A stretch of 64,000 nt of DNA, taken from NCBI GenBank assembly GCA_963844585.1, contig CAWJOV010000001.1, positions 40,312 to 104,311 on the forward strand. The letters run 5' to 3'. Position numbers and translations under genes: made by a program. The notes under the pieces are model-generated. The model had not been told where the DNA came from. It saw nothing but the letters and a program-made list of their open reading frames with translations, and made no database searches. Shown here one piece after another: positions 28,980 through 63,198 of the stretch; within the stretch, counting starts at the first letter, position 1; every line of letters starts with the position of its first letter. Source of the DNA: an uncultured Solirubrobacterales bacterium (lineage in GTDB: Bacteria > Actinomycetota > Thermoleophilia > Solirubrobacterales > Solirubrobacteraceae).

Positions 28980-29631
28980 CCAGGCCCCCCTTGCCGGTCG
29001 CGATGTCCGCCTCTGGTTGGCTCTGTCGCTCCGCCATCCCCAAATCCCCCTCCCACCCACCGGTGTTGCCCTTGTACAGGCCTTCGCCGCCGAGCACCAT
29101 CGCCGGGGTGCGCCACAGGATGCGCAGATCGAGCGCCAGCGAGCGGTGCTCGATGTAGTAGAGGTCGAGCTCGATCCGCTCGCTCCAAGGCAGCGAGGCG
29201 CGGCCGTTGACCTGCGCCCAGCCGGTGATCCCCGGTCGGATCGCCAGGCGCCCACGCTGGCGGGGGGTGTAGCGCTCGACCTGCACCGGCACGGTAGGGC
29301 GGGGGCCGATCAGCGACATCTCGCCGCGTAGGACGTTCAGCAGGTTGGGCAGCTCATCGAGCGAGGTGCGCCGCAGGAAGGCCCCCACGCGCGTGATGCG
29401 CGAGTCGTTCGCGTCCACCGCCAGCCCGGCGCCGACGTGCTCGGCACCGTCAACCATCGTGCGCAGCTTCAGCACGTCGAACGGCCGCCCGTCGCGCCCG
29501 ATGCGCCGCTGGCGGTAGAGCGCGGGGCCACGCGACTCCAGGCGGATCGCGGCCATCGCCGCCGCAACCACCGGCGCGCTCAGCACGAGCAGGGTAGCCG
29601 CCACCGCGATGTCCACCGCGCGGCGGATCAC
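28972..29631 (-). CDS. polyprenyl-phosphate sugar phosphotransferase (bacterial sugar transferase family)
   Basis: N-terminal TM followed by PALYRQRRIGRDGRPFDVLKLRTM...DELPNLLNVLRGEMSLIGPRP, the WbaP/EpsL C-terminal domain signature. Confidence 0.85.
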   Translation of the reverse strand: MIRRAVDIAVAATLLVLSAPVVAAAMAAIRLESRGPALYRQRRIGRDGRPFDVLKLRTMVDGAEHVGAGLAVDANDSRITRVGAFLRRTSLDELPNLLNVLRGEMSLIGPRPTVPVQVERYTPRQRGRLAIRPGITGWAQVNGRASLPWSERIELDLYYIEHRSLALDLRILWRTPAMVLGGEGLYKGNTGGWEGDLGMAERQSQPEADIATGKGGLDG

Positions 29632-29721
29632 GGGTCCCCCGCGATGTCTACGGCGCGGCGGATCACTTGGTCGCCCCCCGCGATGTCTACGGCGCGGCGG
29701 ATCACTTGGTCGCCCCCCGCG
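29609..29721 (-). repeat. triplicated gene-junction repeat (35+39+39 bp) with a 25-codon bridging ORF
   Basis: Plus-strand copies at 29609-29643, 29644-29682 and 29683-29721. On the minus strand each copy carries GTGATCCGCCGCGC(C/G)GT(A/G)GACATCGCG, which is the 5' end of the sugar transferase. Confidence 0.9.
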
Positions 29722-30958
29722 ATGGGAGTCCGGCCGGGCGCGTGCCCTCCGCCGCTTCCCACGTGGCGGCGGTGCCGTGGCGCAGCCAATCCCACAGGCC
29801 GACCGCGAGCATCGCTGTGGTGAGCACGTAGTAGCGAGCGACCAGCAGCACGCGAATGTGCAGCACCCCGCCGATCCCGGCGGCGAACAGCAGGAGCAGT
29901 TGCACGGCGAGCGTGGCGACGTACAGCGAGTGCGGAGCGGCGTTGCGCGCCGCCAGCGCGATGTTGGCGGCCAGCGCCAGCGCGTGCAGGAACGGGGTCA
30001 GATAGCGCAATAGGCGGTGGGAGATGATCATCAGTGCATACCCCGGGGGATAGCCGCGCAGGGAGAGCATCCCGCCGCGCAGCACGATTGGCCAGGTGTG
30101 GCTCATCATGCGCCGCTTGCGCGCCAGCTCGCCCTCCAGCGAGGGCACCATCCGCTCGGTGGCGAGCGCCTGGGGCACGTACACCGCGCGCCAGCCGCGC
30201 TTCACCATATTGAAGGGGAACGACAGGTCGTGGCCCATGATCGGATCGACCACGATGTAGGCGTCGCGACGAGTCGCATAGATCGCGCCGTTGCCTGCGG
30301 TGATCGAGGAGAGCCGCGACTCCATCTCGCGCACCGCCATCTCATAGCGCCAGTACACACCCTCCTGGTTGGTCGCCCCGGCGCCCTTCGCGCGTACGAA
30401 GCGCACCTGCCCGCAGGCGTAGCCGACGTGGGGGTCGGCGAACGCATCGACGAGGACGCGCGCGGCGTCCGGCTCCCACAGCGCGTTGGCGTCGGAGAAG
30501 GCCACGATCTCCCCCCGCGCGCGTTCGACGGCCGCGTCCTGGGCGCGGATCTTGCCACCTCGTGTCAGCTCCAGCACGATGTCGGCGCCCGCCTCTCGCG
30601 CGTGCTCTGCGGTCGCGTCGGTGCAGCCGTCGCAGGTGACGATCACCTCGAGCAACTCGCGCGGGTAGTCCAGCGCCAGCGCGTTGGCGACCTTCGCGGC
30701 GATCATCGACTCCTCGTCGTGTGCTGCGACGATCAGCGACAGCGACGGCAGCGGCGGGGCGAATGGAGGGGGCGGGTGCTCATCCCCGCGGGGCGAAGCG
30801 GCTGCGCGAGCGGGATTCGGCGGGGGGGCGAACAGGCGAGTCAGGACGGCCAACGCCGCGGCGTAGCCGAGCTGTGCCCACACGATCAGCGTGGCGCACA
30901 CCCAGAAGAGGACCTCCAAGATCGTGTTCACCATCCCAAACCTTGCCTCTCGCCCCAT
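29702..30958 (-). CDS. membrane-embedded family-2 glycosyltransferase (processive synthase-like)
   Basis: N-terminal TM, GT-A core (LIVAAHDEE...VTCDGCTD...FSDAN) and several C-terminal TM helices, an architecture like the NodC/PgaC/IcaA class. Confidence 0.85.
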   Translation of the reverse strand: MGREARFGMVNTILEVLFWVCATLIVWAQLGYAAALAVLTRLFAPPPNPARAAASPRGDEHPPPPFAPPLPSLSLIVAAHDEESMIAAKVANALALDYPRELLEVIVTCDGCTDATAEHAREAGADIVLELTRGGKIRAQDAAVERARGEIVAFSDANALWEPDAARVLVDAFADPHVGYACGQVRFVRAKGAGATNQEGVYWRYEMAVREMESRLSSITAGNGAIYATRRDAYIVVDPIMGHDLSFPFNMVKRGWRAVYVPQALATERMVPSLEGELARKRRMMSHTWPIVLRGGMLSLRGYPPGYALMIISHRLLRYLTPFLHALALAANIALAARNAAPHSLYVATLAVQLLLLFAAGIGGVLHIRVLLVARYYVLTTAMLAVGLWDWLRHGTAATWEAAEGTRPAGLPSRGATK

Positions 30959-32565: not shown

Positions 32566-32584
32566 CGGCAGAGACAATAGGCGG

Positions 32585-36466: not shown

Positions 36467-36826
36467 ATGGCGGAAGGCGCTCCTCCCGCTGGAGACGGGC
36501 TGTATCAGGAGATCACAGACACTCTCGTGGGAATCCAGACGAGGTACCTCGGTCACGGTCCGGGGAGCGCCACGACGTTTCAGGACGACAATGTCGTGGT
36601 GACGGTGATGCACGACGTGCTCTCGAAGGCTGAGAAGATCCTCGCGCACAACGGCAACAGCACGGATGTGCGCAGTGCGCGCGAGCTCTATCGACGGGAG
36701 ATGGAGGGAGACTTCCGCGCGGCGGTTCAGCGGCTCACGGGTCGTAGCGTGGTGGCCTTCCTCGGTACCAGCCAACTCGAGCAGGACGTGGCGGCTGAGA
36801 TCTTCATTCTCGACGGCGCGGCCTGA
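36467..36826 (+). CDS. DUF2294 (MpsC-like) protein
   Basis: 119 aa with a pattern shared with the next gene: TxxLVGIxTxYLGxGPxxAxTF...VVVTxMHDVLxxAEK...FxAAVxRLTxR. Confidence 0.6.
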   Translation: MAEGAPPAGDGLYQEITDTLVGIQTRYLGHGPGSATTFQDDNVVVTVMHDVLSKAEKILAHNGNSTDVRSARELYRREMEGDFRAAVQRLTGRSVVAFLGTSQLEQDVAAEIFILDGAA

Positions 36827-36909
36827 ACCGCGCACGCTGCGACTCGCGCGCAAGTCGATCCAGCTCTCTCTTGCTCGCGGCCCTGCGAGGGAGTAGCGTA
36901 GTTTCCGCC

Positions 36910-37269
36910 ATGGCCGAGTCCGAGAATTTGCGGGGCGGTGAGCTGAATGCCGCGGTCACCAGTGCCCTGGTGGGGATCCACACCGAGTACCTTGGGCGAG
37001 GGCCGAAGACGGCCTCCACGTTCCATTACGGCAATGTGCTGGTGACGCTGATGCACGATGTCCTCACGCACGCGGAGAAGTCGCTCACCCGCAGCGACCA
37101 CTCCGACGCCGTCGCCAACATCCGCCACCTCTTCCAGGAGACGATGGAGAGAGACTTCTGCGCCGCCGTCGAGCGGCTCACGGACCGCCGCGTGCGCGCC
37201 TTCATCAGCGGCAACCACATCGACCCCGATATCGCCGCGGAGATGTTCATCCTCGACCGCCCGCTATGA
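36910..37269 (+). CDS. DUF2294 (MpsC-like) protein, tandem paralog
   Basis: Start at ATG 36910. Colinear with 36467..36826 over its whole length. Confidence 0.6.
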   Translation: MAESENLRGGELNAAVTSALVGIHTEYLGRGPKTASTFHYGNVLVTLMHDVLTHAEKSLTRSDHSDAVANIRHLFQETMERDFCAAVERLTDRRVRAFISGNHIDPDIAAEMFILDRPL

Positions 37270-37370: not shown

Positions 37371-37482
37371 CCGGTGAGCCCTATGCGGTAAGCACCCCTC
37401 TTGGTGGACCGGTAAGCCCTATGCGGTAAGCGCCCTCTTGGTGGACCGGTGAGCCTTACGCGGTAAGCACCGTCTTGGTGCC
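37371..37482 (-). repeat. about 37-bp x3 tandem repeat spanning the ADH stop codon
   Basis: Copies at 37371-37408, 37409-37445 and 37446-37482. The third copy holds the last 8 codons plus the TAA of the ADH gene. The others carry the equivalent TAG. Confidence 0.9.
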
Positions 37483-39581: not shown

Positions 39582-39592
39582 TGGGGCGAGCG

Positions 39593-40336: not shown

Positions 40337-40416
40337 CGACGGGGAGCCGTAGCGGTTACGTGCGTGGAAGTTGACGACGGGGGAGCCGTCGCGGTTACCG
40401 TGTGGAAGTTGACGAC
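40265..40416 (+). repeat. 38-bp x4 (plus one degenerate) tandem repeat spanning the PPTase stop codon
   Basis: Copies at 40265, 40303, 40341 and 40379, with a degenerate fifth copy running to about 40456. The stop TGA at 40334 lies in copy 2. Confidence 0.9.
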
Positions 40417-40505
40417 AGGAGCCCTCGTGGTGCGCGCGCGGGCGCTGAGGCTCAGGGTAAGGCCGGCCTCCAAGCCCTAGGCACTCGCCTCGATGCCGGG
40501 AGCAA

Positions 40506-43037: not shown

Positions 43038-43111
43038 GCTGACAGCTGGCCATATGGTCACCTGGGACGACCCGAACCTAAGCCCGCGGGGAGTCCCGTC
43101 GATACGGTGGT

Positions 43112-52300: not shown

Positions 52301-52414
52301 CGCACCCCCGCCGACTCGCACTTCCGCCGACTCGCACCCCCGCGGACTTGCACCTCCGCCGACTCGCACCCCCGCCGACTCGCACCCCCGCCGACTCGTA
52401 CCCCTGCGCGACTT
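52301..52414. repeat. 16-bp x7 tandem array (cgcacccccgccgact)
   Basis: Units at 52301, 52317, 52333, 52350, 52365, 52381 and 52397, the last degenerate. Starts 7 nt after the regulator stop and ends 53 nt before the ER operon ATG. Confidence 0.9.
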
Positions 52415-52466: not shown

Positions 52467-53267
52467 ATGCGTCAGTCGCAGCTGCTGGCAGGCAAGCGGA
52501 TTCTCATCACCGGGGTGTTGACCACGAAGGGGATCGGGTACGCGATTGCCCGCGAAGCCCAGGAGGCGGGAGCCGAGATCGTGCTGAGCAGCTTCGGCAG
52601 GATGCGCGCGATCACGGTGCGGGCGGCCCGCCAGTTGCCACGTCCCGCGGACGTGCTGGAGCTGGATGTCACGAGCGAGCAGGACCTGGCTCGGGTGGCG
52701 GAGGAGCTGCGGCAAGGGTGGGGGTCGCTGGATGGGGCAGTGCACGCGGTCGCGTATGCGCCCCCCGAGGCGATGCGGGGCGAGCTGCTCTCCACCCCGG
52801 GCGAGGCGGCGTGCCGCGCCTTCGGCACGAGCGTGGTGTCGCTGGCACGGTTGGCGGCGGCGCTGCGGGAGTTGATGTGCGGCGAGGAGGAGCAGAGGGC
52901 CAGTCTGGTGGGGCTGAGCTTCGAGTCCTCGACGGCGTGGCCGTCGTATGACTGGATGGGGGTGAGCAAGGCGGCGCTGGAGTCGGTGGCGCGCTATCTA
53001 GCACGGGATCTGGGAGGCGACGGGGTGAGGGTCAACACCGTGTCGGCGGGCCCGATCCTGACATTGGCGGCGAGCGAGATACCGGCGTTCGAGGAGATCG
53101 CCGACACCTATGCGGAACGTGCCCCGCTGGGCTGGGATCGCTTCGACGCGGGGCCGATCGCGGGGGCCGTGTGCTTTCTGCTCTCCGACTGGTCGCGGGG
53201 AATGACCGGTCAGACGCTGCACGTGGACGGCGGCTGTCGCGCGGTGGGGATGGCACCGGTGCGATGA
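52467..53267 (+). CDS. InhA-type NADH-dependent enoyl-ACP reductase, copy 1
   Basis: Colinear with M. tuberculosis InhA by eye: LLAGKRILITGV, LELDV, catalytic WPSYDWMGVSKAALESV (Tyr/Lys), LLSDW. Confidence 0.85.
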   Translation: MRQSQLLAGKRILITGVLTTKGIGYAIAREAQEAGAEIVLSSFGRMRAITVRAARQLPRPADVLELDVTSEQDLARVAEELRQGWGSLDGAVHAVAYAPPEAMRGELLSTPGEAACRAFGTSVVSLARLAAALRELMCGEEEQRASLVGLSFESSTAWPSYDWMGVSKAALESVARYLARDLGGDGVRVNTVSAGPILTLAASEIPAFEEIADTYAERAPLGWDRFDAGPIAGAVCFLLSDWSRGMTGQTLHVDGGCRAVGMAPVR

Positions 53268-54106
53268 GCCTGCTGGCGGGCAAGCGACTGCTGATCACCG
53301 GCGTGGCGACCAAGCACAGCATCGCCCACGCGATCGCCTGCGAGGCGCAGGCGGCCGGCGCGGAGGTGATCCTGACGAGCTTCGGGCGCGTACGCTCGAT
53401 GACCGAGCGCTCGGTAAGGACACTTCCTCGGCCGGCGCGTGTGCTGGAGCTTGACGTGGGCGTGCCGGAGCACTTCGACGCCCTGCGCGAACTGATCCTC
53501 GGCGACTACGGGGCGCTCGACGGGGCCGTCCACGCGATCGCGTGGGCCCCGGAAGAGGCGTTCGGCGGGCGCTTCCTGGAGGCCTCGCGCGAGAGCGCGA
53601 TGGAGGCACTCGGCACGAGCGCCTTCTCCTTCAAGGCGCTGGCCCAGGCGCTTGCCCCGGCCTTCGCCGCGAACGGTCGCGGCAGTCTGGTGGGGTTGGA
53701 CTTCGACGCCACGGTGGCGTGGCCGCTGTATGACTGGATGGGGGTGTGCAAGGCGGCGCTGGAGTCGATCTCGCGCTACCTCGCCCGCTATCTCGGCGAA
53801 CAGGCCACGCGTGTGAACCTGATCGCGGCGGGGCCGATCGTGACGCCGACGGCCAACGGGATTCCAGGTTTCTCTGAATTGATCGAGCTGTGGGGGTATC
53901 AGGCGCCGCTCGGGTGGAACAGCCGCGACCCGCGACCGATCGCGCGCGCCGCGTGCTTTCTGCTGAGCGACTGGGCGGAAGGGATCACCGGAGAGATCCT
54001 CCACGTCAACGGGGGCTTCCACGCGATGGCGGCACCATTTCCCGAGCGCATGAAGTGGGGATCCCAAGCCGAAGCACCAACTCCACCTGCCTACCTCGCA
54101 AAGTGA
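53264..54106 (+). CDS. InhA-type enoyl-ACP reductase, copy 2
   Basis: ATG overlaps the copy-1 stop (ATGA). LLAGKRLLITGV, WPLYDWMGVCKAALESI, LLSDW. About 20 extra C-terminal residues. Confidence 0.85.
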   Translation: MSLLAGKRLLITGVATKHSIAHAIACEAQAAGAEVILTSFGRVRSMTERSVRTLPRPARVLELDVGVPEHFDALRELILGDYGALDGAVHAIAWAPEEAFGGRFLEASRESAMEALGTSAFSFKALAQALAPAFAANGRGSLVGLDFDATVAWPLYDWMGVCKAALESISRYLARYLGEQATRVNLIAAGPIVTPTANGIPGFSELIELWGYQAPLGWNSRDPRPIARAACFLLSDWAEGITGEILHVNGGFHAMAAPFPERMKWGSQAEAPTPPAYLAK

Positions 54107-54344
54107 AGGTGGGCGTTCGCATCAAGCACATCAACGCCAAGCCATACCTGTCGCGCGGGTGGTGCGATGTCTCTCAAAACAGACCTAAACCCTTCACAAA
54201 ATGAAGTGGTAGGGCCAAAAAAGTAATACACAACAACCCCACCCCCACGCTCACTTCCATGGCCCGACGATCTCGTCCGCCCGTGACCGTTGCGGTGTGC
54301 GGTGCGAGCGTGAAAGCCAACCGAATCGCTGCTATGCGCCGCCG

Positions 54345-54524
54345 CCACGTAATGCGCTGCCACGTCACGCGCCCCCACGTAATGCGCCCCCACGTAATGC
54401 GCCGCCACGTAATGCGCTGCCACGTCACGCGCCCCCACGTAATGCGCTGCCACGTAATGCGCTGCCACGTAATGCGCCGCCACGTCACGCGCCCCCACGT
54501 CATGCGCCGCACCGTCGGGCGCCG
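54345..54524. repeat. 15-bp x12 tandem array (ccacgtaatgcgc-nn)
   Basis: Exact 15-bp phase from 54345. Variants are taatgcgctg, tcacgcgccc and taatgcgccg. Ends 5 nt before the acyltransferase stop codon, and there are no spacers. Confidence 0.95.
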
Positions 54525-54529
54525 GCGGG

Positions 54530-55513
54530 TCAGGCGCCAGCAAGCGTACGCTCGACGAGCTCTGTGAGGATGCCGTGAGTGCCCATCTCGCGGTAGGACT
54601 CCACCCCCGCCGCATGCAGCGCGATCACACTCTCGCGCCAGCGCACGCATGAGGTCAGGGCGAGCGCGAGCTCGGAGCTGAAATCGGTGAAAGGCGCGGC
54701 GGTGACATTGGCGATCACGGTCATCCGCGGCACCCTGAACCGCGCCATCTCGAGCGCGTGCCTGAAGGGCGCGACCGCGGCGGCCATCGCGCTGGAGTGA
54801 AGCGCGGCGGGCACGCGCAGAAGCACCGTCTTCAGCCGGCCCTCCGAGCGAGCCTGCGTGCGCGCGGCCCGCAGACGCTCGAGCGGGCCGGAGAGGACGA
54901 GCTGCGCGGGCTCGTTGTCGGCGGCGAGCGTCAGCCGATGGCACTCCCCGAGCTGCAGCGCGAGCGGGCGCGGTCCCATCACGGCGAGCAGCCCGCCGGG
55001 CGCGCCGGAGTCGGCGGCGCGCTGCATCGCCGCCCCTCGCGCGAGCACGATCCGCATGCCTTCGCGCGCGCTCAGGCAGCCGGCCGTCGTCAGGGCGGTG
55101 AGCTCGCCGAGCGAGTGGCCGACGGCGAAGTCCGCGAGCGGCTCTCCCGCCGCGCGCCAGTGCGCGAGCGTGCCGCAGAACACCGCCGGCTGCAGGTAGG
55201 CCGTCCCCTCCTCCGCCCGCTCGAACGGGTCTCCCCCGAGCTCATCGGCGGCCTGCTGCAGCAACTCCGGGCAGAGCTCGCGGGCGAGCTGGTGCATCGC
55301 GCGATCCTGGCTGCCCTGGCCGGGGAACAGAAGCGCGCTGCGGGAGCCAGGCCGATCGCTTGCGAGATTGGGGTGGGGAGGGGGGAGCGTCCGCGCGCGG
55401 GAGCGCATCGACCAGCCTGCTGGGCGCGGGGCCTCCTGCCCCGCGTCCACCCCGGTTGACAAATGGGCGTATGTGTTGGTGGTGCGATGGGCGTGGTCGG
55501 TGGTGCGCGACAT
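54530..55513 (-). CDS. stand-alone acyltransferase (FabD / trans-AT type)
   Basis: Start at the ATG 8 nt after AAGGAGG. FPGQGSQ, active-site GHSLGE, NEPAQLVLSG, and AALHS in place of the HAFH/YASH specificity motif. Confidence 0.8.
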   Translation of the reverse strand: MSRTTDHAHRTTNTYAHLSTGVDAGQEAPRPAGWSMRSRARTLPPPHPNLASDRPGSRSALLFPGQGSQDRAMHQLARELCPELLQQAADELGGDPFERAEEGTAYLQPAVFCGTLAHWRAAGEPLADFAVGHSLGELTALTTAGCLSAREGMRIVLARGAAMQRAADSGAPGGLLAVMGPRPLALQLGECHRLTLAADNEPAQLVLSGPLERLRAARTQARSEGRLKTVLLRVPAALHSSAMAAAVAPFRHALEMARFRVPRMTVIANVTAAPFTDFSSELALALTSCVRWRESVIALHAAGVESYREMGTHGILTELVERTLAGA

Positions 55514-55591
55514 AGTCGTTTCCTCCTTGCTGGCCATCGGGCGGCACACACGCTGGCAGCGACGCGAACTGCTGTCGAAGCACGGACGGGC

Positions 55592-55785
55592 GCGCGGACG
55601 ACGTGGTGATCGCCCGCATCGAAGCCAGGTGATGGTGCGCGGATGACGTGGTGATCGCCGGTATCGAAGCCAGGTGATGGGGTGCGGATGACGTGGTGAT
55701 CGTCCGTATCGAAGCCAGGGTGTTAGGGCGCGCGGATGGTGTGGCGATTGCCCGCATCGAAGCCAGGGGTGCTGGGGCGCGTGGA
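55592..55785. repeat. about 45-bp x4 tandem array in a divergent promoter region
   Basis: The anchor atcgaagccagg occurs at 55618, 55663, 55708 and 55756. The anchor acgtggtgat occurs at 55601, 55646 and 55691. Confidence 0.9.
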
Positions 55786-55833
55786 GTTTGGGTGTGCGCG
55801 GTCGCGCCGGGTACGCTCGGCGACCGATCGTGA

Positions 55834-57528
55834 ATGATCGTGCGATTCATGGATATGACACTCGAGCTTGCTCCCCCATCCCCCCTCCCACTCGCGGAGC
55901 CCGTCGCTTCGCCCTCGCTTTCTCCCCCGCGTGTGCGGATGGAATGCCTGCTGGACCCGGGCTCGCTGCAGCTGCTGAGGACGCGCGTGCGCTCGCAGCG
56001 GCTGGGCCTGGACGCGTACGACGGCGATGGCGTGCTCACGGGGATCGGCACGGTGGAGGGACGGCCGGTGGCCTGCTACGCGCAAGATGCCCGCGTGGCC
56101 GCCGGCTCGCTCGGCGTGAGCCAGGCCGACGCGATCGTGCGGCTGTTGGGGATGGCGCGCGAGGCGCGCATGCCGGTCGTCTCGTTCCTGGCATCGTCGG
56201 GTGCGCGGATCCAGGAGGCCGTGGCGGCGCTCGCCGGGTATGCCCGCGTGTTCAACGAGATCGTCGCGCTCTCGCGGGTGGTGCCGCAGATCTCGATCGT
56301 CACCGGGGTGTGCGCCGGCGGCGGCGCCTACGCGCCGGCGTTGACCGACTTCGTGATCATGACCCAGTCGGCCGCGATGTTCCTCACGGGTCCTCGCATA
56401 GTGCGCGACGCGTGCGGGGAGGACGTCACGGTGGCCGAGCTCGGCGGCGCGCGGGTGCACCGCGCCAACGGCGTCTGTCAGCTGGTGGCAGCCGACGACG
56501 ACGATGCCGCCGCGCAGGCACGGTGGCTGCTCTCCCACCTCACGCCAGGCCGCGTCGAGCGTGCCGCGCGTGCCGGGGGCTCCGCCGAGGATTTCGCGCG
56601 ACTTGCCGATGCGGCCGAGCGTCCAGCGCGCATCGATCCCGCGGGGCGTCCCACGCGTGTCGATCCTTCGGAGCATCCCACGTGCGTCGATCCTGCCGAG
56701 CGTCACGCACACAAAGCCCCGATCGCGGGTCGAGGAGTGGCACGCGACCCCGGCTCCGTACTGCCGTCGCGCCCGAGCGCGGTGTACGACGTGCGCGAGG
56801 TAATCCGCGCGCTGGCCGACCGCGAGGACTTCCTGGAGACCGACGCCAGCTGGGCGCGCAACATCGTGACCGGCTTCGCCCGCATCGGCGGCCACGCGAT
56901 CGCGGTGGTGGCCAACCAGCCGCGGTTCATGGGCGGAGTGATCGACACCCACGCCTCCGAGAAGGCGGCGCGCTTCGTGGATCTGTGCGCGGCTTTTGGG
57001 CTGCCGCTGGTGGTGTTGGTCAACACCCCGGGCTTCATGCCGGGCACGCGCCAGGAGGGGGAGGGGATCATCCGCCACGGCGCGGGCATCGTGAGGGCTT
57101 TCGCCGCCGCGCGCGTGCCCCGCTTCACCGTGATCCTGCGCAAGGCGTACGGCGGCGCGTACATCGCGATGAACTCGATTCACCTCGGCGCCTCGCTGGT
57201 GTATGCGTGGCCGGACGCGGAGATCGGCGTGATGGACGCCCGTAGTGCCGTCAGCTTGATCCACCGAGCGACGCTTGCGCAGGCGAGCGATCCCGAAGAG
57301 CTGTTGCGCACGCTCGCGAGCGACTACCGGCGCGAGCATTGCGCTGCACTGGTGGCGGCGCACGGCGGCTTCGTCGACGAGGTGATCGCGCCGGCTCAGA
57401 CGCGCGCCTGTTTGTGCTCGGCGCTGGCGACGTTTGGGTCTGGTGGGGGGCGCGCGCCGGTGCGGGCATGGGCTCCCCACCACTCGGTGGGGTTGGACGC
57501 CGAGCGGGACACGGCGGAGGTGTATTGA
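55834..57528 (+). CDS. acyl-CoA carboxylase carboxyltransferase (beta) subunit, PccB/AccD-like
   Basis: LLDPGS, GIGTVEGRPVACYAQD, SGARIQE, TGVCAGGGAY in the N-domain. C-domain ANQPRFMGGVID...RKAYGGAYIAM. A 27-bp x4 insert (56614-56721) lies in the interdomain linker. The start is uncertain (55834-55939). Confidence 0.8.
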   Translation: MIVRFMDMTLELAPPSPLPLAEPVASPSLSPPRVRMECLLDPGSLQLLRTRVRSQRLGLDAYDGDGVLTGIGTVEGRPVACYAQDARVAAGSLGVSQADAIVRLLGMAREARMPVVSFLASSGARIQEAVAALAGYARVFNEIVALSRVVPQISIVTGVCAGGGAYAPALTDFVIMTQSAAMFLTGPRIVRDACGEDVTVAELGGARVHRANGVCQLVAADDDDAAAQARWLLSHLTPGRVERAARAGGSAEDFARLADAAERPARIDPAGRPTRVDPSEHPTCVDPAERHAHKAPIAGRGVARDPGSVLPSRPSAVYDVREVIRALADREDFLETDASWARNIVTGFARIGGHAIAVVANQPRFMGGVIDTHASEKAARFVDLCAAFGLPLVVLVNTPGFMPGTRQEGEGIIRHGAGIVRAFAAARVPRFTVILRKAYGGAYIAMNSIHLGASLVYAWPDAEIGVMDARSAVSLIHRATLAQASDPEELLRTLASDYRREHCAALVAAHGGFVDEVIAPAQTRACLCSALATFGSGGGRAPVRAWAPHHSVGLDAERDTAEVY

Positions 57529-57595
57529 TGCGCGTTGCGCCCAACGATCTCTTGGCCGGGTCGGACGCCGTCGGCGACACGGTGGGGCGCTGCTG

Positions 57596-58738
57596 ATGGA
57601 CTTCGAGTGGACGCACGAGCAGCGCGAGCTGCACGCCGGCGCCGTGGAGGCGGGCGAGCGGATCGCCGCCGCCCAGGCGCGCGCGGATGGGCAAAACGCG
57701 TTCAGCGCACAGGCGTGGAGCGCCGCGAGCGCGTTCGGCCTGGCGGGGCTGGACGTGCCGCGCGAGTACGGCGGCCTCGGCCTGGACCGTCTGACGACCG
57801 CGCGCGTGCTGGAGGGCTTCGGCGAAGGCTGCCCGCAGCTCGGCCTGGTGTTCTCGGCCGCCGCCCACCTGTTTGCCTGCTGCGGGCCGATCGCCAGCGC
57901 GGGTAGCCGCGAGCTGCGCGAGTCGCTGCTGCCGCGCCTCGCCAGCGGGGCGCTGATCGGCGCCAACGCGATCACCGAGTCGGAGGCGGGGTCGGACATC
58001 CTCGCGTTGCGCACGCTGGCAACCCGCGACGGCGACGGGTATCGCATCACAGGCGAGAAGACGCTCGTCACCAATGGGCCGGTGGCCGACGTCACGATCG
58101 TCTACGCCCGTACGCAGCCCGAGGGCGGGTATCTCTCGCTGAGCGCGTTCGCGGTTGAGCGCGACACGCCCGGCTTCCTTGCGGGCGAGCCGTTCGCGAA
58201 GATCGGGCTGCAGGGCTCGCCGACTGGCAGCGTGTATCTGCAGGAGAGCCCGGTGCCGCGCGAGAACCTGATCGGGGCGGAGGGCCAGGGCGCGCTGATC
58301 TTCAAGGCGGCGATGCAGGCCGAGCGCGCCTGCCTGTTTGCCGCCTACATCGGCGCGATGGCGCGCCAGCTGCGGGAGGTGGTGAGCTTCGCCTCCGAGC
58401 GCCGTCAGTTCGGTCGGGCGATCGGCAAGAACCAGGCGATCTCGCACCGCATCGTGGACATGAAGCTGCGCTTGGAGGCGGCACGGCTGCTGGTGTACCG
58501 GGCGTGCTGGCTGCTCGACCGGGGGCGCGACGCGATGGTGGCGGTGTCGCTCGCCAAGATCGCCGCCAGCGAGGCGGCGGTGCAGTCGGGGCTGGACACG
58601 ATCCACATCCATGGCGGCCTCGGGGTGATTTCGGAGACGGGGGTCGCGGGGCTGCTGCGGGATGCCCTGCCCGCGACCCTCGTCTCGGGCACATCGGAGA
58701 TCCAGCGCGACATCGTCGCGGCGAGGCTGGGGCTGTGA
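57596..58738 (+). CDS. acyl-CoA/acyl-ACP dehydrogenase family flavoprotein
   Basis: Start at ATG 57596 (MDFEWTHEQ). GANAITESEAGSD, a C-terminal GGLG...SGTSEIQRDIVA. The usual YEG Glu is Ser here, and a Glu sits in MQAERA. Confidence 0.85.
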   Translation: MDFEWTHEQRELHAGAVEAGERIAAAQARADGQNAFSAQAWSAASAFGLAGLDVPREYGGLGLDRLTTARVLEGFGEGCPQLGLVFSAAAHLFACCGPIASAGSRELRESLLPRLASGALIGANAITESEAGSDILALRTLATRDGDGYRITGEKTLVTNGPVADVTIVYARTQPEGGYLSLSAFAVERDTPGFLAGEPFAKIGLQGSPTGSVYLQESPVPRENLIGAEGQGALIFKAAMQAERACLFAAYIGAMARQLREVVSFASERRQFGRAIGKNQAISHRIVDMKLRLEAARLLVYRACWLLDRGRDAMVAVSLAKIAASEAAVQSGLDTIHIHGGLGVISETGVAGLLRDALPATLVSGTSEIQRDIVAARLGL

Positions 58739-58827
58739 GCACGCTCGAACCAAGCACCACGTTCCTAGGCGCTTCGGAGATCCTGTACGACATCGTCGCG
58801 GCGAGGCTGGGGTTGTGAGCACGCTCG
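58694..58827 (+). repeat. 80-bp period gene-junction duplication with a 27-codon bridging ORF
   Basis: A 54-nt block, tcggagatcc..gacatcgtcgcggcgaggctgggg(c/t)tgtgagcacgctcg, occurs at 58694 and again at 58774. GTGA overlaps at 58735-58738 and 58815-58818. Confidence 0.9.
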
Positions 58828-60638
58828 CGCCCAGCCCCCCGCGGATGCGCTCGCTCGCGGACGTGTTCGCGAGCGGGCTGGCGCGCAGCCCCGACGGCCC
58901 CGCCGTGCGCGAGCCCGGTCGCGAGGTGAGCTACCGCGAGCTCGACGCGTTGATCGAGCGACTGGTGGCGTCGCTCGTCGAGCTCGGCGTGGGCCGCGGG
59001 GAGCGCGTGGCGGTGTGGCTGCCCAAGTCGGTCGAGGCGATCGCCGCAATGCAGGCCGCCGTGCGCGTGGGCGCGGCGTACGTCCCGATCGATCCGCTCA
59101 GCCCACCTGAGCGCGTGCGGCGGGTGCTCGGCGACTGCCAGGCGTCGGCGTGCGTGGCGAGCGCCGAGGGTATCGAGCAGGCGCTGGCGGGCGAGCTCCC
59201 CGGTCTTTCGCTGGTGACGCCCGCGGCGGGCAGCGACGGGTGGGAGGTGCGGCGCGGCGTCGATCCGCGCGAAACGCCTCTCGAGAGGTGGCCTGTCGGG
59301 AAAGGAGCCGGTGGCGCGGCGGCGGCGCGGCGGGGTATCGATGGGGGCGGTGTCGATCGGCGGGGTGTCGATGGACGGGGTGTCGATGGGGGCGGTGTCG
59401 ATCGGCGGGGTGTCGATGGACGGGGTGTCGATGGGGGCGGTGTCGATCGGCGGGGTGTCGATGGACGGGGTGTCGATGGGGGCGGTGTCGGTCGGCGGGG
59501 CATTGATAGGGACGGCGTCGGTCGGCGGCGCGTACGCGAGGCGGCTCCCGTGGGCACGCTCGCCGACACGGACTCCCCGGGCGAGGACGAGCTCGCCTAC
59601 ATCCTCTACACCTCGGGCTCGACCGGCACGCCAAAGGGGGTGTGCATCTCGCACCGTAACGCGCTCGCGTTCGTCGAATGGGCGTACGCCGAGCTTGCGC
59701 CGACTGACGAGGACCGGTTCGCCAACCACGCGCCGCTGCACTTCGACCTGTCGGTGCTCGACCTCTACGTGGCGTTCCTAGCGGGCGCCTGCGTGTGCCT
59801 GATCCCGGAGACGATCTCGTTCATCCCCGCGCGGCTGGTGGAGCTGGTGCGCGCTGAGCGCATCACGATCTGGTACTCGGTGCCCTCCGCGCTGATGTTG
59901 ATGGAGCGTGCCGGGCTGCTCGAGGATCCCCCGCAGGCGCTGCGTGCCGTGCTGTTCGCCGGCGAGCCCTTCCCGATCGAGCCGTTGCGCCATCTGCGCG
60001 GCGCGCTGCCGCGGGCGCGGCTTTTGAACCTGTACGGCCCCACCGAGACCAACGTCTGCACCTGGTATGAGGTGGGCGAGATCGACGAGGACGCCGAGCG
60101 GCCGGTGCCGATCGGCAAGGCGTGTTCGGGCGACAAGGTGTGGATCGAAGATCGCGACGGCTTTCCGGTGCCGGTCGGCGGGCGTGGCGAGCTGGTGGTG
60201 GAGGGGCCGACGGTGATGCTCGGCTACTGGGGCGCGCGTCGGCAGCGCGGGCCGTATCGAACCGGCGACATCGCCGAGCGCATCTCGCCCGAGGAGTACC
60301 GCTACGTGGGCCGCCGCGACGCGATGGTGAAGGTGCGGGGGCACCGCGTGGAGCTGGGCGAAGTCGAGGCGGCGCTGGTCGCCCACGAGGAGATCCGCGA
60401 GGCCGCGGTGGTGGTGCTCGGCACGGGTCTCGACAGCCGTCTCGTGGCCGCCGTGGTGGCCCGCGCCGATACTGCCCTGGGGCTGCTGGAGATCAAGCGC
60501 TGGTGCGCGGAGCGCCTGCCGCGCTACATGATCGTGCACGAGCTGCGCGTGCTCGCCGAGTTGCCCCGCAGCCGCAACGGCAAGCTCGACCGCCGCGCGC
60601 TTGCCGCGCAGCTGTCGGCGGGGGAGCCGGCCCTGTGA
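58815..60638 (+). CDS. stand-alone adenylation enzyme (DltA / NRPS A-domain type)
   Basis: Start at GTG 58815. Core motifs LAYILYTSGSTGTPKGV, FDLSV, NLYGPTET, YRTGD, GRRDAMVKVRGHRVELGEVE, NGKLDR. Confidence 0.85.
   Translation: MSTLAPSPPRMRSLADVFASGLARSPDGPAVREPGREVSYRELDALIERLVASLVELGVGRGERVAVWLPKSVEAIAAMQAAVRVGAAYVPIDPLSPPERVRRVLGDCQASACVASAEGIEQALAGELPGLSLVTPAAGSDGWEVRRGVDPRETPLERWPVGKGAGGAAAARRGIDGGGVDRRGVDGRGVDGGGVDRRGVDGRGVDGGGVDRRGVDGRGVDGGGVGRRGIDRDGVGRRRVREAAPVGTLADTDSPGEDELAYILYTSGSTGTPKGVCISHRNALAFVEWAYAELAPTDEDRFANHAPLHFDLSVLDLYVAFLAGACVCLIPETISFIPARLVELVRAERITIWYSVPSALMLMERAGLLEDPPQALRAVLFAGEPFPIEPLRHLRGALPRARLLNLYGPTETNVCTWYEVGEIDEDAERPVPIGKACSGDKVWIEDRDGFPVPVGGRGELVVEGPTVMLGYWGARRQRGPYRTGDIAERISPEEYRYVGRRDAMVKVRGHRVELGEVEAALVAHEEIREAAVVVLGTGLDSRLVAAVVARADTALGLLEIKRWCAERLPRYMIVHELRVLAELPRSRNGKLDRRALAAQLSAGEPAL
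59334..59528 (+). repeat. 15-bp x13 in-frame repeat (GVDxx) inside the adenylation gene
   Basis: Codon-aligned units GIDGG, GVDRR, GVDGR and so on, with a 45-bp higher-order period x3. Lies immediately N-terminal to the A3 motif. Confidence 0.95.
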
Positions 60639-60901
60639 GCTCGGTCGAGCTTGTCTCCTATATCGAACCGCTGCGTGCGTTCATCGAGCGCGACCATCTC
60701 GACGGCCGCGTGACACTCACCGACGACGCGCCGCTGTTGGAGTGGGGGGTGATCGATTCGCTCGCGCTCGCCGATCTGATGGCGTTCATCGAAGAGCGCT
60801 TCGCCGTGAGCGTGCCACTGGAGGCGGTGACCCCGGCGAACTTCCGCACCCTGCAGACGATCGCGGCGATGCTCCAGGAGCTGGTGGCGGGTGAGCGCTG
60901 A
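60635..60901 (+). CDS. carrier protein (DltC/PCP-like)
   Basis: GTG overlaps the adenylase stop (GTGA). 88 aa with the phosphopantetheine site LLEWGVIDSLALADLMAFIEERF. Confidence 0.75.
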   Translation: MSSVELVSYIEPLRAFIERDHLDGRVTLTDDAPLLEWGVIDSLALADLMAFIEERFAVSVPLEAVTPANFRTLQTIAAMLQELVAGER

Positions 60902-60902
60902 G

Positions 60903-61118
60903 ATGGCGATTGCGAATAAGCACGAGGTGGCCGCGGCGGGTGTGCACGAGATGGCGACCGCGGGTGGGCACGGCAAGGGCGCCCACTGTGAGCGCCAGAT
61001 GGCTGCCCAGGGAAAGCGCGAGATGGCGACCGCGGGTGGGCACGGCAAGGGCGCCCACTGTGAGCGCCAGATGGCTGCCCAGGGAAAGCGCGAGATGACA
61101 ACCGCCGGTGAGGGCTGA
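60903..61118 (+). repeat. 72-bp repeats forming a 71-aa (75-aa from the alternative GTG at 60891) bridging ORF between carrier protein and KS
   Basis: gagatg-anchored units start at 60948, 61020 and 61092. The junction string GGTGAG(C/G)GCTGAGATG is present at both 60889 and 61106. Confidence 0.85.
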
Positions 61119-61119
61119 G

Positions 61120-63198
61120 ATGTCCGCCGCACGACCGCCGCTGGCGATCGTCGGCGTGGGCGCGCGCCTGCCCGGCAGCAGCGGTCCCGGTGCGTTCTGG
61201 GAGACGCTGCTGGGAGAGCGCGAGGAGATCGTCGACACCCCCGCCTACCGTGCCCGCACGCGCGCCAGCGAGGAGCGGCCGCCGACGCGCCGCGGCGTGC
61301 GGCGACGAGGCTCGGTCGGCGACGTGGAAGGGTTCGATTGGCGCGCTTTCCGCATGTCGCCGCGGGAGAGCAAGTACGTGGACCCCCAGCAGCGGCTGCT
61401 GCTGGAGACCGCCTGGGAGGCGCTCGAAGACGCCGGGATCCCGTTTGAGCGCATCGCCGGCACGCACACGGCGGTGTTCATGGGAATCATGTGGCCGGAC
61501 TACGCGAAGCTGCTCGCCGAGAACCCCGCGCAGCTCGCCGCCTATGCCACCTCTGGCGTGGGGTTTGCGCTGGCCGCCAACCGCATCTCTCACACTTTCG
61601 ACCTGCGTGGGCCAAGCGTCTCGCTCGACGTTCAGTGCGCCTCTTCGTTGGTAGCAGTATGCCTGGCGGCGTCGGCGATCTGGAGCGGCGACGCCGAGCT
61701 GGCGCTGGCAGGGGGCGTCAACCTGATTTTGGCGGCGGACTCCGACGTGATGATGGGCCGCGCGGGCATCCTCTCGCCGACCGGCCGCTGCATGACCTTC
61801 GACGCCGGGGCCGACGGCTTCGTGCGGGGCGAGGGCGCCGGTGTGATCGTCCTCAAGCCGCTTGCGGACGCGCTCGCCGACGGCGACCGCGTGCTCGCGA
61901 CGATCCGCGGCGCGGCGTGCAACCACGATGGGCGCCGCGCGGCGCTGACCGCTCCCTCGCACGACAGCCAGGTAGAGCTGGTGCGACGCGCCTGTGCGAG
62001 CGCCGGGGTGCAGCCGCGCGAGCTGGACTACGTGGAGCTGCACGGCACCGGCACGCAGAAGGGCGACCCGATCGAGGCGCGCGCGCTGGGTGAGGCGGTC
62101 GCCGGGCGCCACCAAGGCGATCCCTGCCTGGTGGGGTCGGTGAAGACCAACATCGGCCACTGCGAGTCGGCGGCGGGGGTCGCCTCGGTGATCAAGGTGG
62201 CGCTGGCGCTCCACCACGGAGTGATTCCGGCGACGATCAACCACACCGAGTTGCACCCCGAGATCGAGGCGGGCGCGCTGGGAGTCGAGCTGGTGACGGC
62301 TGCGCGCCCCTGGCCGGCGCGTACCCGTCCGTGGCTGGCGGGGATCAACGGCCTTTCGCTGGGCGGTGGCAACGCGCACGTGGTGCTCGAGCAGGCGCCC
62401 GCGGTGGTGGCGAGCGCCGATGCCGAGGGCTACGCCCTGCCTGGACCGCCGGTGTTGGTGTTGTCGGCGCGCACCGACTCTTCGTTGCGTGAGCTGGCGC
62501 TCGCCTATGCGCGACATCTCGAAGGGCTCGGCGATGACCATGCGGCGCTGCACGCGACGTGCGCGGCGGCGGCATTGCGACGGACTCACCACGAGCGCCG
62601 CGTGGCGGCCTTTGCCCAGAGCTCCGCGGAACTCGCCACGGCGCTGCGCCGGTTCGCTCGCGTTGCCGCCGGCACGGCCGTGTCACTGCCACCCCCCCGT
62701 ACCTCGCCCCGGGTTGGGCTGCGGCTCTCCGCGGATTTCGACGCTCACGCGCTGGAGACGCTGCGCGGGCGCTTGGCCGCGTGGGATGTGGCGGAGGTCT
62801 GCACCCTGGTGGGCGCCGACGATCTTCTTGGCGGTGAGGTGTCGTCGGCCATCGCGGCGTCGCCTGCCGCCACGGCGTCGCCTGCCGCCACGGCGTCGCC
62901 TGCCACCACGGCGCCGCCGGTCGCCGCGGAGCCGCCCTGCTCCGGCGAGCCACCGCGCCCGAGTGCCCCAAACCGGGAGCAGATGCTGGAGCTCGGGCCG
63001 TTGACGAGTCCGCAGGAGCTGCTCGCGTTTCTCTACCGCGGCGGCTGTACGGTGCAATGGTCGGCGATCTACGGTGCCCATTGCCCGGCGGTTGCGCTGC
63101 CAACGTACCGCTGGGAGCGCGAGCGGCTGTGGATCGACCCACTGCCGGAGAGCGCGATGGCGGACGGAGTTAGAGGCGATCTTGCGCACGCCGGTTGA
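61120..63198 (+). CDS. stand-alone type I PKS-style ketosynthase with C-terminal linker, no AT
   Basis: IAIVGVGARLPG, DPQQRLLLE, active-site DVQCASSL, HGTGT, NIGHCESAAG, then a tail of about 250 aa containing ASPAAT x3 (62857-62910). Alternative GTG start at 61108. Confidence 0.85.
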   Translation: MSAARPPLAIVGVGARLPGSSGPGAFWETLLGEREEIVDTPAYRARTRASEERPPTRRGVRRRGSVGDVEGFDWRAFRMSPRESKYVDPQQRLLLETAWEALEDAGIPFERIAGTHTAVFMGIMWPDYAKLLAENPAQLAAYATSGVGFALAANRISHTFDLRGPSVSLDVQCASSLVAVCLAASAIWSGDAELALAGGVNLILAADSDVMMGRAGILSPTGRCMTFDAGADGFVRGEGAGVIVLKPLADALADGDRVLATIRGAACNHDGRRAALTAPSHDSQVELVRRACASAGVQPRELDYVELHGTGTQKGDPIEARALGEAVAGRHQGDPCLVGSVKTNIGHCESAAGVASVIKVALALHHGVIPATINHTELHPEIEAGALGVELVTAARPWPARTRPWLAGINGLSLGGGNAHVVLEQAPAVVASADAEGYALPGPPVLVLSARTDSSLRELALAYARHLEGLGDDHAALHATCAAAALRRTHHERRVAAFAQSSAELATALRRFARVAAGTAVSLPPPRTSPRVGLRLSADFDAHALETLRGRLAAWDVAEVCTLVGADDLLGGEVSSAIAASPAATASPAATASPATTAPPVAAEPPCSGEPPRPSAPNREQMLELGPLTSPQELLAFLYRGGCTVQWSAIYGAHCPAVALPTYRWERERLWIDPLPESAMADGVRGDLAHAG

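Follow-up and report, generated by a model that had tools for sequence, protein, structure and literature searches.

The window, i.e. the whole 64-kb stretch of DNA analysed here, derives from a soil actinobacterium of a Solirubrobacteraceae lineage in which short tandem repeats are unusually numerous. Its nearest named relatives are Solirubrobacteraceae and Solirubrobacterales MAGs, not Mycobacterium. The main features are listed in Table 1. Arrays are not confined to overlapped junctions and gene ends; some occupy regions between divergent promoters or at convergent 3' ends. Arrays detected with TRF in the window and its relatives are head-to-tail, with unit lengths within 10–100 nt.

Table 1. 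Tandem arrays, bridging ORFs and selected genes of the window (window positions)
Feature	Position	Strand	Repeat or product	Context
23849 array	23849–23943		37 nt, 2.6 copies	Divergent intergenic region, not a gene end
Bac_transf (sugar transferase) gene	28972–29631	-		Pfam and codon-position GC
J1 array	29604–29724	-	39 nt, 3.2 copies (TRF)	GT2 stop / Bac_transf start junction, in triplicate
J1 bridging ORF	29705–29628	-	25 aa	GTGA 29705 to GTGA 29631
GT2 gene	29702–30958	-		Pfam and codon-position GC
37371 array	37371–37480	-	37 nt, 2.9 copies	Copies last 24 nt, stop and 10 nt downstream of ADH gene
40261 array	40261–40423	+	38 nt, 4.3 copies	Inside 3' end of PPTase coding sequence
42919 array	42919–43038	+	28 nt, 4.2 copies	Copies last 15 nt, TGA and 10 nt downstream of M3 peptidase gene
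J2 array	49375–49473	+	30 nt, 3.2 copies (TRF); last unit 32 nt	RsbU-like (RR-SpoIIE-HATPase) / STAS junction
J2 bridging ORF	49394–49459	+	21 aa	ATGA 49394 to ATGA 49456
52301 array	52301–52413	+	16 nt, 7 copies	Begins 7 nt past stop of DUF1016_N-like gene, upstream of SDR1
54340 array	54340–54510		15 nt, 11.4 copies	Between convergent genes, ends 20 nt from acyltransferase stop
55589 array	55589–55767		45 nt, 3.9 copies	Divergent region, acyltransferase / carboxyltransferase genes
J3 duplication	58693–58826	+	80 nt, 1.7 copies	Acyl-CoA dehydrogenase / AMP-ligase GTGA junction
J3 bridging ORF	58735–58818	+	27 aa	GTGA 58735 to GTGA 58815
59329 array	59329–59500	+	15 nt, 11.5 copies	In-frame, inside AMP-ligase gene
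J4	60899–61122	+	Internal 24/72-nt repeats	ACP / ketosynthase TGAGATG junction, two copies 217 nt apart
J4 array	60947–61110	+	72 nt, 2.3 copies (TRF); subunits 24 nt	Within J4
J4 bridging ORF	60903–61118	+	71 aa	TGAGATG 60899 to TGAGATG 61116

A sequence-only reading of the window had proposed that four co-directional junctions are tandemly duplicated. All four duplications are real: J1, J2 and J4 are detected by TRF, and J3, missed by TRF at its copy number of 1.7, is evident on reading the sequence. Translation also verified that the bridging ORF of each opens on the upstream overlap and closes on the downstream overlap, and as read from the sequence every junction copy retains either the canonical overlap of 4 nt or a gap of 1 nt. 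At J1 the GTGA copies lie at 29705, 29666 and 29631, giving units of 39 and 35 nt; the repeating 39-nt unit is in-frame, one unit is off by 4 nt, and this difference closes the frame. The duplication here stands, whereas its former placement on the plus strand at 29609 does not, since GT2 and Bac_transf are both encoded on the minus strand and the plus-strand ORF is therefore spurious. The 30-nt unit of J2 is likewise in-frame, with one unit off by 2 nt, and again that indel closes the frame. The STAS start at 49456 is backed by an exact protein match, and the AMP-ligase start at 58815 is supported by P0001. The J3 duplication is made up of a 54-nt repeat and a diverged 26-nt spacer.

Comparison with related genomes bears on the claim that the units derive from local gene ends. 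A single junction is found at the J1 site of the sister genome L084 (one GTGA), at J3 in L083, L001 and L172 (one GTGA each) and at J4 in L082 and L001 (one TGAGATG each). Because relatives keep single junctions at these sites, J1, J3 and J4 are derived local copies and not a shared element; for J2 no clean single-copy relative was found among the compared relatives. The J3 duplication is also present in L082, where its frame is closed too, and the J4 version in L083 measures 121 nt and carries a 39-aa ORF. At the J2 junction the sister genome L082 has a different array of in-frame 24-nt units, and the Logan short-read contig L081, identical in sequence to the window, ends inside the J2 array. 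At the SDR1/SDR2 junction, which is single in the window, L082 furthermore shows ATGA four times at intervals of 35 nt. The L082/L084 assembly holds several frameshifted genes, and its reading frames must therefore be treated with caution; the 35-nt spacing is nonetheless consistent over three units. At J1–J4, and in further cases in L082, L083 and L086, translation across all junction copies thus shows an intercistronic array whose small ORF overlaps the stop on one side and the start on the other.

Three arrays, all of them detected by TRF, had also been described as copies of the stop-codon region at 3' ends. This is correct for the 37371 array of the minus-strand ADH gene, whose stop lies at 37458–37456 and whose older, decayed copies reach back to about 37285, and for the M3 peptidase array, then placed at 42924. 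It is not correct for the array placed at 40265, an internal, frameshifting 38-nt duplication with its breakpoint 12 nt upstream of the native PPTase stop, by which the native tail RLG* gives way to 12 aa terminated by a TGA that used to be out of frame (40334–40336). The PPTase array is absent from L084, where the native end is kept, and has 3.1–3.5 copies in L085, depending on the threshold. The M3 peptidase array has 26-nt units in 3.0 copies in L084 and 29-nt units in 3.8 copies in L085, and is absent from L086 and L169. L085 is 98% identical to the window at the nucleotide level, yet both arrays differ in copy number between them.

Copy numbers differ among related genomes elsewhere as well, e.g. 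in the AMP-ligase array, with 11.5 copies in the window and 5.8 in L082; in the same loop L172 has a 36-nt array. A 41-nt array is present in 4.0 copies in L086, 6.0 in L087 and 2.5 in L088, with ThyX identical in all three samples. The 55589 array is common to the window and L082 (44 nt, 4.1 copies there). The position of the 52301 array is occupied in L172 by an unrelated array of ten 24-nt copies, and that of the 54340 array by different arrays in L082 and L083 (36 and 30 nt). The 23849 array is a product of the same process as the others. Short tandem duplications of 15–80 nt appear to form at an unusually high rate in the window's Solirubrobacteraceae lineage: array density is about 2–3.7 per 10 kb, compared with about 0.1–0.2 across 160 unrelated loci. 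Related loci hold 52 arrays in 169 kb and unrelated loci 13 in 912 kb, while a second set of 80 unrelated loci averages 0.11 per 10 kb.

The periods of these arrays point to a filter by selection, with multiples of three inside genes and any period at gene edges and between genes. All five gene-internal arrays of the window (33032, 44777, 56627, 59329 and 62855) have a period divisible by three, as do all 23 gene-internal arrays among the 52 counted in the lineage. Edge and noncoding arrays are distributed 14:7:8 across the three mod-3 classes. At junctions, six of six independent duplications (four in the window, two in relatives) have a total length that closes the frame, for which chance gives (1/3)^6 = 0.0014, and a Fisher test with the mod-3 classes of non-junction arrays as reference yields 0.001; the sample is small, and four of the six events were the reason the window was flagged. 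Preservation of frame and overlap, as had been proposed, is thus above chance (p about 0.001). A scan of all co-directional pairs revealed no additional junction duplications, closed or open. The closure of the bridging frames suggests, and would fit, selection for termination-reinitiation coupling.

We therefore favour, with a probability of roughly 65%, an explanation in which tandem duplication is undirected and occurs at a high rate, and purifying selection decides which duplications survive, keeping closed frames at junctions. The most likely source of the duplications would be replication slippage between short direct repeats. In L084 the 7-nt direct repeat ATCGCGG occurs at the J1 site with a spacing of exactly 39 nt, equal to the J1 unit, which reads as a clear slippage signature for this junction. 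Slippage is the probable mechanism in general, although microhomology is clear only at J1; no microhomology of at least 5 nt was found at the J3 breakpoints, and at SDR1/SDR2 the spacing of CACCGG is 42 nt against a unit of 35 nt. The duplications would not be aimed at junctions, and the observed set would be what purifying selection tolerates. Inside a gene, a duplication should persist only if it adds a multiple of three nucleotides or disturbs no more than the last few codons. Across a stop codon or between genes all genes would remain intact, and any length would be viable. A duplication across an overlapped junction (xTGA or TGAnATG) would also leave both genes intact, and would place a new start beside the upstream stop. 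It should persist only when the total insert ends the bridging ORF exactly on a stop overlapping the true downstream start. In this closed configuration the ribosome would terminate on the upstream gene, re-initiate on the mini-ORF and, after translating it and terminating there, initiate once more on the real gene. Coupling would thereby be relayed, instead of being lost or yielding a product that is out of frame or extended at its N terminus, and coupling is probably the selected property.

The sequence-only reading had instead postulated junction-targeted slippage or repair that seeds arrays at overlapped junctions, with selection for coupling on top. Under a uniform-duplication null, calculated on the array-collapsed window, the junction share of non-internal events is 7% (9% in 23.6–64 kb, 13% in 41–64 kb), and four of the ten non-internal arrays in the window are at junctions (p = 0.004–0.035, lower if only one third of lengths is viable). 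The enrichment that had been anticipated is accordingly present in the window but not among relatives that the earlier reading had not picked, where 2 of 13 independent non-internal arrays are at junctions, which is not significant, and L172 has none of five. Independent arrays at the same junctions, or in the last codons upstream, are also in favour of targeting (window and L086 for J1, L082 and L083 for SDR1/SDR2, window and L082 for J2), although such recurrence is also expected if the sites are simply tolerant. Gene interiors, divergent promoter regions and convergent 3' ends hold arrays no less often, i.e. arrays occur wherever they are tolerated, and the units have no junction-specific motif in common. 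Junction targeting is not established, because relatives give only 2/13, and we consider it unlikely. The model of uniform duplication followed by filtering predicts 3–13% junction arrays in the window, where 4/10 are seen; since this is more than predicted, the model may lack a mutational or selective bias.

The arrays might also be ordinary minisatellites in which frame closure is coincidental and without translational consequence. Bridging ORFs are short, stop-free runs of 21–71 codons are likely at 70% G+C, and the absence of stops is unsurprising because these ORFs are made of native coding sequence; in the J3 ORF, 5 of 8 differences between the window and L082 fall at third positions, a weak bias (p = 0.09). 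This neutral explanation is nevertheless quite improbable in our opinion, given that all six events fall in the one closing length class of three, a preference that non-junction arrays do not have, and that two arrays of in-frame units, J1 and J2, each contain the very indel needed for closure. Very doubtful is the opposite notion of adaptive tuning, by which variable mini-ORF chains are kept as contingency loci that adjust or switch the ratio at which neighbouring genes are translated, or because the mini-proteins are functional. It could account for copy numbers that vary among close relatives, for a J4 ORF kept open in two lineages at 71 and 39 aa, and for the upstream gene's G-rich pre-start sequence and start codon in each unit. 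Array gain and loss, however, shows no relation to gene function, the J4 ORF matches no Pfam family and differs greatly in sequence between lineages, and junction arrays are indistinguishable from many noncoding arrays nearby. Insertion at junctions of a dispersed mobile family resembling MIRUs, REPs or MITEs has in its favour a surface likeness to MIRUs, which lie between cistrons and whose ORFs overlap the stop and start on either side (PMC12548453, PMC3184786). When the consensus sequences of 15 units were aligned locally in pairs, in both orientations, no family was recovered, in agreement with the earlier claim that the units share no consensus; with doubled units the best pair, J1 and the 55589 array, reaches a score of only 24. 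Across ten arrays the fold z-scores lie between -2.7 and +1.5 and are mostly close to 0; the folds are not unusually stable, unlike the palindromic or terminal-inverted-repeat hairpins of REP, BIME or MITE elements, and no Rfam family was found at its gathering score. Moreover, the units are copies of flanking gene ends that are single-copy in relatives. An assembly artefact is contradicted by homologous arrays in independent JGI, ENA and Logan assemblies, both short- and long-read; mobile insertion and artefact are together highly improbable.

If the frame-closing rule holds genome-wide, it would provide, without experiment, natural and replicated evidence that overlapped junctions are under selection for termination-reinitiation coupling, and that this selection is strong enough to sort insertions by their length modulo three. 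It would also imply that local duplication and selection can produce the defining trait of MIRUs, an ORF that overlaps the genes on either side, a route that bears on the origin of MIRUs and on why they are tolerated. A bolder extension, which we also regard as unlikely, is that junctions are true duplication hotspots, variable mini-ORF chains are heritable, reversible rheostats of operon stoichiometry, and an architecture like that of MIRUs is a general evolutionary outcome, from which MIRUs themselves possibly arose, rather than belonging to a single mobile element. A minisatellite-rich lineage whose sister lineages are repeat-poor is well suited to a search for the change in repair or replication that controls the rate of tandem duplication. 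Such genomes are furthermore mishandled by short-read assemblies and gene callers, as contigs break in arrays and arrays are called as genes. A limited search of the searchable literature gave no description of junction-derived, frame-closing arrays.

MIRUs consist of units of 40–100 nt, often in tandem and in variable number, between co-transcribed genes (Supply et al. 1997, summarised in PMC12548453, PMC3184786). Their small ORF overlaps the upstream stop and the downstream start with a spacing of -4, and is thought to keep translational coupling; they form one sequence family at about 40–50 loci and are regarded as mobile insertions (PMC12548453, PMC3184786). The junction arrays of the window are similarly intercistronic and carry a small ORF that overlaps the gene on either side. 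Unlike MIRUs, each has its own unit, copied from local gene ends, without a dispersed family; the units are not foreign, the ancestral single junction being seen in relatives for J1, J3 and J4, and the host belongs to the Solirubrobacteraceae and not to Mycobacterium. With bacterial minisatellites or VNTRs (PMC6749651) they share local head-to-tail units of 10–100 nt, copy-number differences between strains and in-gene periods divisible by three. The density is far higher, as seven arrays of at least four copies in the window correspond to about 110 per Mb if the window is representative, whereas the bacterial satellite survey, in the part available, gives few species above 4 per Mb, and top bacterial values of 21.9–23.0 in an unlabelled column of its table excerpt (PMC6749651). 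Frame closing at overlapped junctions is likewise outside the description of VNTRs. Each step of the proposed relay would use the mechanism of termination-reinitiation pairs (ATGA, GTGA, TGATG; PMC6728339, PMC10666635, PMC12548453). In the known coupled cases a single junction connects two functional genes, whereas the window has one to three non-functional mini-ORFs as putative relay steps. Taken together, the arrays of the window appear to represent minisatellite behaviour with MIRU-like coupling.

All the tandem arrays named in a reading of the sequence alone exist, as judged by TRF and direct reading of the sequence. At four of them, J1-J4, an overlapping stop/start junction between neighbouring genes has been duplicated, and a small bridging ORF leads from the upstream stop at the first copy to the downstream start at the last (see table). 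The array at J1 is as described earlier, with its strand corrected to minus; its bridging ORF runs from the first GTG to a TGA overlapping the last GTG. The STAS start at J2 is backed by an exact protein match and the AMP-ligase start at J3 was confirmed by P0001. The RsbU-like protein and Bac_transf had no exact match when looked up, probably through a different choice of starts by the gene caller. Translation verifies frame closure at all four junctions.

The G+C content of the window is 68-72%. Its gene map rests on the G+C of codon positions together with a self-trained codon model, was checked against Pfam, and holds approximately 49 genes (92% coding). The nearest named relatives are Solirubrobacteraceae / Solirubrobacterales MAGs, and closer ones were drawn from a protein collection: L085 (98% nucleotide identity), L082 and L084 (92-95%), which are both parts of a single 1.2 Mb contig, L083 (91-93%), L086, L087 and L088 (91% in the M3 gene) and L172, a genome further removed that shares the window's cluster. 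L169, L170/171, L090 and L001 are repeat-poor outgroups, and L001 was the best match (74% aa) in an AMP-ligase scan of genome contigs. The metagenome contig scan gave only two relatives (75-76%), both repeat-poor; its remaining loci were used as background. The PKS-like cluster, kept in the window (52467-64000) and in L082 (4000-21758), further includes a MaoC dehydratase, a methyltransferase, a second ACP, an AfsA-family protein and an amine oxidase, and its ACAD/AMP-ligase/ACP/KS core order recurs across many phyla among 160 retrieved loci. The gene for a 1895-aa protein lies in a region of lower G+C (0.66) with a strong A-over-T skew (0.2), and two MpsC-family genes are present in the window and L086 and absent from the sister L084 (12120-12161).

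Features of the window and of related loci (ACAD, acyl-CoA dehydrogenase; KS, ketosynthase; KR, ketoreductase)
Feature	Locus, strand	Coordinates	Repeat or content	Closure distance (nt)
Glycosyltransferase cluster	window	27.9-36 kb		
HAMP histidine kinase, RR-SpoIIE-HATPase protein, STAS protein	window	44-50 kb		
PKS-like cluster	window	52 kb onward	two SDRs, acyltransferase, carboxyltransferase, ACAD, AMP-ligase, ACP, KS, KR	
J1, GT2/Bac_transf	window, minus	GT2 29702-30958, stop TGA 29704-29702; GTGA 29705, 29666, 29631; Bac_transf start GTG 29631	units 39 and 35 nt; 25-aa ORF	74
J2, RsbU-like/STAS	window	stop TGA 49395-49397 within ATGA; ORF from ATG 49394 to TGA 49457-49459 within STAS-start ATGA	21-aa ORF	62
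J3, ACAD/AMP-ligase	window	GTGA 58735, 58815	80-nt duplication; 27-aa ORF	80
J4, ACP/KS	window	TGAGATG 60899, 61116	71-aa ORF of 24/72-nt repeats	217
J4 site	L083			121
SDR1/SDR2	L082		four ATGA	35 per unit
GT2/Bac_transf	L086	ATGA 18870, GTGA 19004	45-aa open ORF	134
ADH gene, 3' end	window, minus	37371	copies gene end and stop	
PPTase gene	window	40261	38-nt duplication inside gene; breakpoint 12 nt before native stop	
M3 peptidase gene, 3' end	window	42919	copies gene end and stop	
AMP-ligase loop array	window	59329-59500	15 nt x11.5	
AMP-ligase loop array	L082	10434-10520	15 nt x5.8	
AMP-ligase loop array	L172	10458-10653	36 nt x4.6	
Acyltransferase/carboxyltransferase divergent region	window	55589-55767	45 nt x3.9	
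Acyltransferase/carboxyltransferase divergent region	L082	7069-7247	44 nt x4.1	
A+T-rich stretch	window	54107-54340		
Miscalled array	L172	3215-3457	81-aa 'gene' consisting solely of 24-nt x10 array	
Miscalled array	L083	1026-1244	72-aa ORF within 30-nt array	
Miscalled array	L082	4938-6071	SDR lengthened ~97 aa via 36-nt array	
1895-aa protein gene	window	12906-18593	RCC1, Ig-like (AIR9/SCAB), fn3 domains	
Two MpsC-family genes	window	36467-37269		

To judge by comparison with the relatives, the junction arrays are local in origin and have no shared element. A single GTGA is found at the J3 site in L001 and L083 and at the J1 site in L084, and a single TGAGATG at the J4 site in L001 and L082. 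The SDR1/SDR2 junction holds one ATGA in the window (53264) versus four in L082, spaced 35 nt apart and forming three successive 12-codon ORFs, and the GT2/Bac_transf duplication of L086 is older and independent. J2 is without a clean single-copy relative; at this site the upstream gene of L082 has a different array, of 24 nt and in-frame, in its last codons. In line with the sequence-only reading, which saw no consensus shared between units, no common motif was seen among the unit consensus sequences, and tRNA and Rfam scans across the window gave no matches. The stability of the arrays in RNA folding was not unusual. An assembly artefact, against which that reading had asked for a check, is excluded, since a Logan short-read contig that ends inside the J2 array is identical in sequence and JGI short-read contigs carry homologous arrays. 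The 1.2 Mb contig from ENA has split GT2 and Bac_transf genes (L084 17466-19880), a carboxyltransferase-ACAD fusion (L082 7312-9924) and, close to where SDR1 ends, an insertion of 1 nt compared with the window (L082 4790-4800). These are likely long-read indel errors, and frames in this assembly (L082/L084) therefore call for caution.

The bridging ORF closes when the distance from first to last copy is 2 mod 3 for ATGA or GTGA overlaps and 1 mod 3 for TGAnATG. All six independent events are closed ((1/3)^6 = 0.0014; Fisher test against the mod-3 classes of non-junction arrays, 0.001), where the 80-nt duplication at J3 in the window and L082 was scored as one event, and J4 in the window and L083 as one event plus in-frame 24-nt expansions. 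The proposal that frame and overlap are preserved above chance is thus borne out. The repeat units of J1 (39 nt) and J2 (30 nt) are in-frame and alone would give the downstream protein an N-terminal extension; one unit off by 4 nt (J1) or 2 nt (J2) closes the frame. On comparison, L082 points to the 32-nt unit of J2 as ancestral. In L082, J2 and AMP-ligase/ACP each have an in-frame array that ends just before the junction, and L083 has one at SDR1/SDR2. When every co-directional gene pair with a gap of 15-450 nt was scanned, no extra diverged and no open junction duplication came to light; overlapping windows account for the high scores seen at gaps <65 nt. Of the 8 differences separating the J3 ORFs of the window and L082, 5 fall on third codon positions (p = 0.09), only a hint of third-position bias.

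Minisatellites are in excess throughout the lineage, and the junction arrays make up a small share of them. For arrays with a TRF score ≥90 and a period ≥10, the density per 10 kb is 2.3 in the window (3.75 within 24-64 kb) and 3.7, 2.3, 2.9, 2.8 and 2.0 in L082, L083, L084, L085 and L086. The mean of 80 unrelated bacterial loci is 0.11, and a second unrelated set of 80 loci gave 13 arrays in 912 kb. Taken with L172, which is repeat-rich as well, window positions 23800-64000 and L082-L086 have a minisatellite density ~20-30x that of unrelated bacterial loci. With arrays defined by a minimum of 4 copies and units of 10-200 nt (PMC6749651), 7 lie in the 64-kb window, an estimate from one window only that far exceeds the figures in the accessible part of the table of that survey. 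Array turnover is fast: three samples whose ThyX is identical carry x4.0, x6.0 and x2.5 copies of one 41-nt array, the arrays of the M3 and PPTase genes are not alike in the window and L085, and the same gene boundary is often occupied by arrays of unrelated units in different lineages. The repeat-rich state is patchy, since the ThyX relatives L169, L170 and L171 (84-86% aa) are repeat-poor. Relatives at 84-88% identity are repeat-poor, yet the more distant L172 is rich, and the first 23 kb of the window have no array scoring >50. This patchiness suggests a lineage-specific, possibly region-specific, change in duplication rate.

Independent in-frame arrays occupy one and the same surface loop on the AMP-ligase in the window, L082 and L172, and the array-bearing enzymes are 574-607 aa long versus 505-525 aa in most homologues. 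The array in the acyltransferase/carboxyltransferase divergent region, kept in L082, could represent candidate repeated operator sites for a cluster regulator. SDR2 and the acyltransferase gene converge on an interval that contains, immediately ahead of the 15-nt array, an unusually A+T-rich stretch without an Rfam match. Gene callers also make genes or gene extensions out of arrays.

Three arrays had been read as copies of the stop-codon region at gene 3' ends. This holds for the ADH and M3 peptidase genes; the third is an intragenic frameshifting duplication in the PPTase gene, which exposes a TGA formerly out of frame. Relatives show that the native PPTase end is ...RVRELRLG*, and they rule out a native tail running to TAG 40478. 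A 38-nt x4 array in L172 (620-771) repeats both the GH76 stop and a G+C-rich hairpin (GCCCC...GGGGC) resembling a terminator stem, and some 3'-end arrays may multiply terminators.

Whether duplication is aimed at junctions, as the sequence-only reading proposed, was weighed against a null model in which the window's noncoding arrays were collapsed to one copy and the observed duplication lengths placed uniformly. Non-internal events then fall 55% intergenic, 19% stop-spanning, 20% start-spanning and 7% junction-spanning (junction share 9% for 23.6-64 kb and 13% for 41-64 kb), and the window has 4 junction, 2 stop, 0 start and 4 intergenic events besides the internal one at 40261. The window excess stands (4/10 junction events; P for at least that many, 0.004-0.035, lower if just 1/3 of length classes are viable), but it was for the junction pattern that the window had been flagged, and only 2/13 independent non-internal arrays of the relatives, and none in L172, are junction cases. 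Junction targeting is therefore unproven. Start-only arrays are nearly absent relative to stop-spanning ones, and this is as compatible with selection as with a mutational bias. Among 52 arrays in 169 kb of repeat-rich loci, two of them doubly counted through the 1.4 kb L082/L084 overlap, the period is divisible by 3 in 23/23 strictly intragenic arrays, and gene-edge and intergenic arrays (n=29) divide 14:7:8 over the three mod-3 classes. A tandem duplication harms a gene only where the duplicated segment falls strictly inside it; duplications across a stop, start or junction keep all genes intact, so that no special mechanism is needed for survival at gene ends.

A direct repeat spaced by the unit length is the classical signature of slipped-strand mispairing. 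The single-copy relative at J1 has such a 7-nt repeat, ATCGCGG, spaced 39 nt as in the window unit. At SDR1/SDR2 the repeat CACCGG is spaced 42 nt versus a 35-nt unit, and no direct repeats of at least 5 nt were seen at J3; slippage as the probable mechanism is hence supported by J1 but not general. The best account combines a high lineage-wide rate of tandem duplication with a selection filter, which includes selection for closed translational hand-over at overlapped genes; the earlier interpretation is supported in part. A ribosome ending the upstream gene would re-initiate on the mini-ORF, stop at the next overlap and re-initiate on the true downstream gene; our inference of this relay draws on the layout of the sequence and on earlier studies of overlapping gene pairs (PMC6728339, PMC10666635, PMC12548453).

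Our literature search, limited in reach, returned no direct precedent for junction-derived, frame-closing or stop-spanning arrays. The arrays fall within the definition of minisatellites/VNTRs. Their nearest analogue is the MIRU, in which an internal ORF and the gene downstream are coupled at a -4 spacing, thought to lessen the impact of the insertion (PMC12548453, PMC3184786). They resemble MIRUs in their intercistronic position and in the overlap, but differ in having neither the shared consensus nor the foreign mobile origin that define a MIRU.
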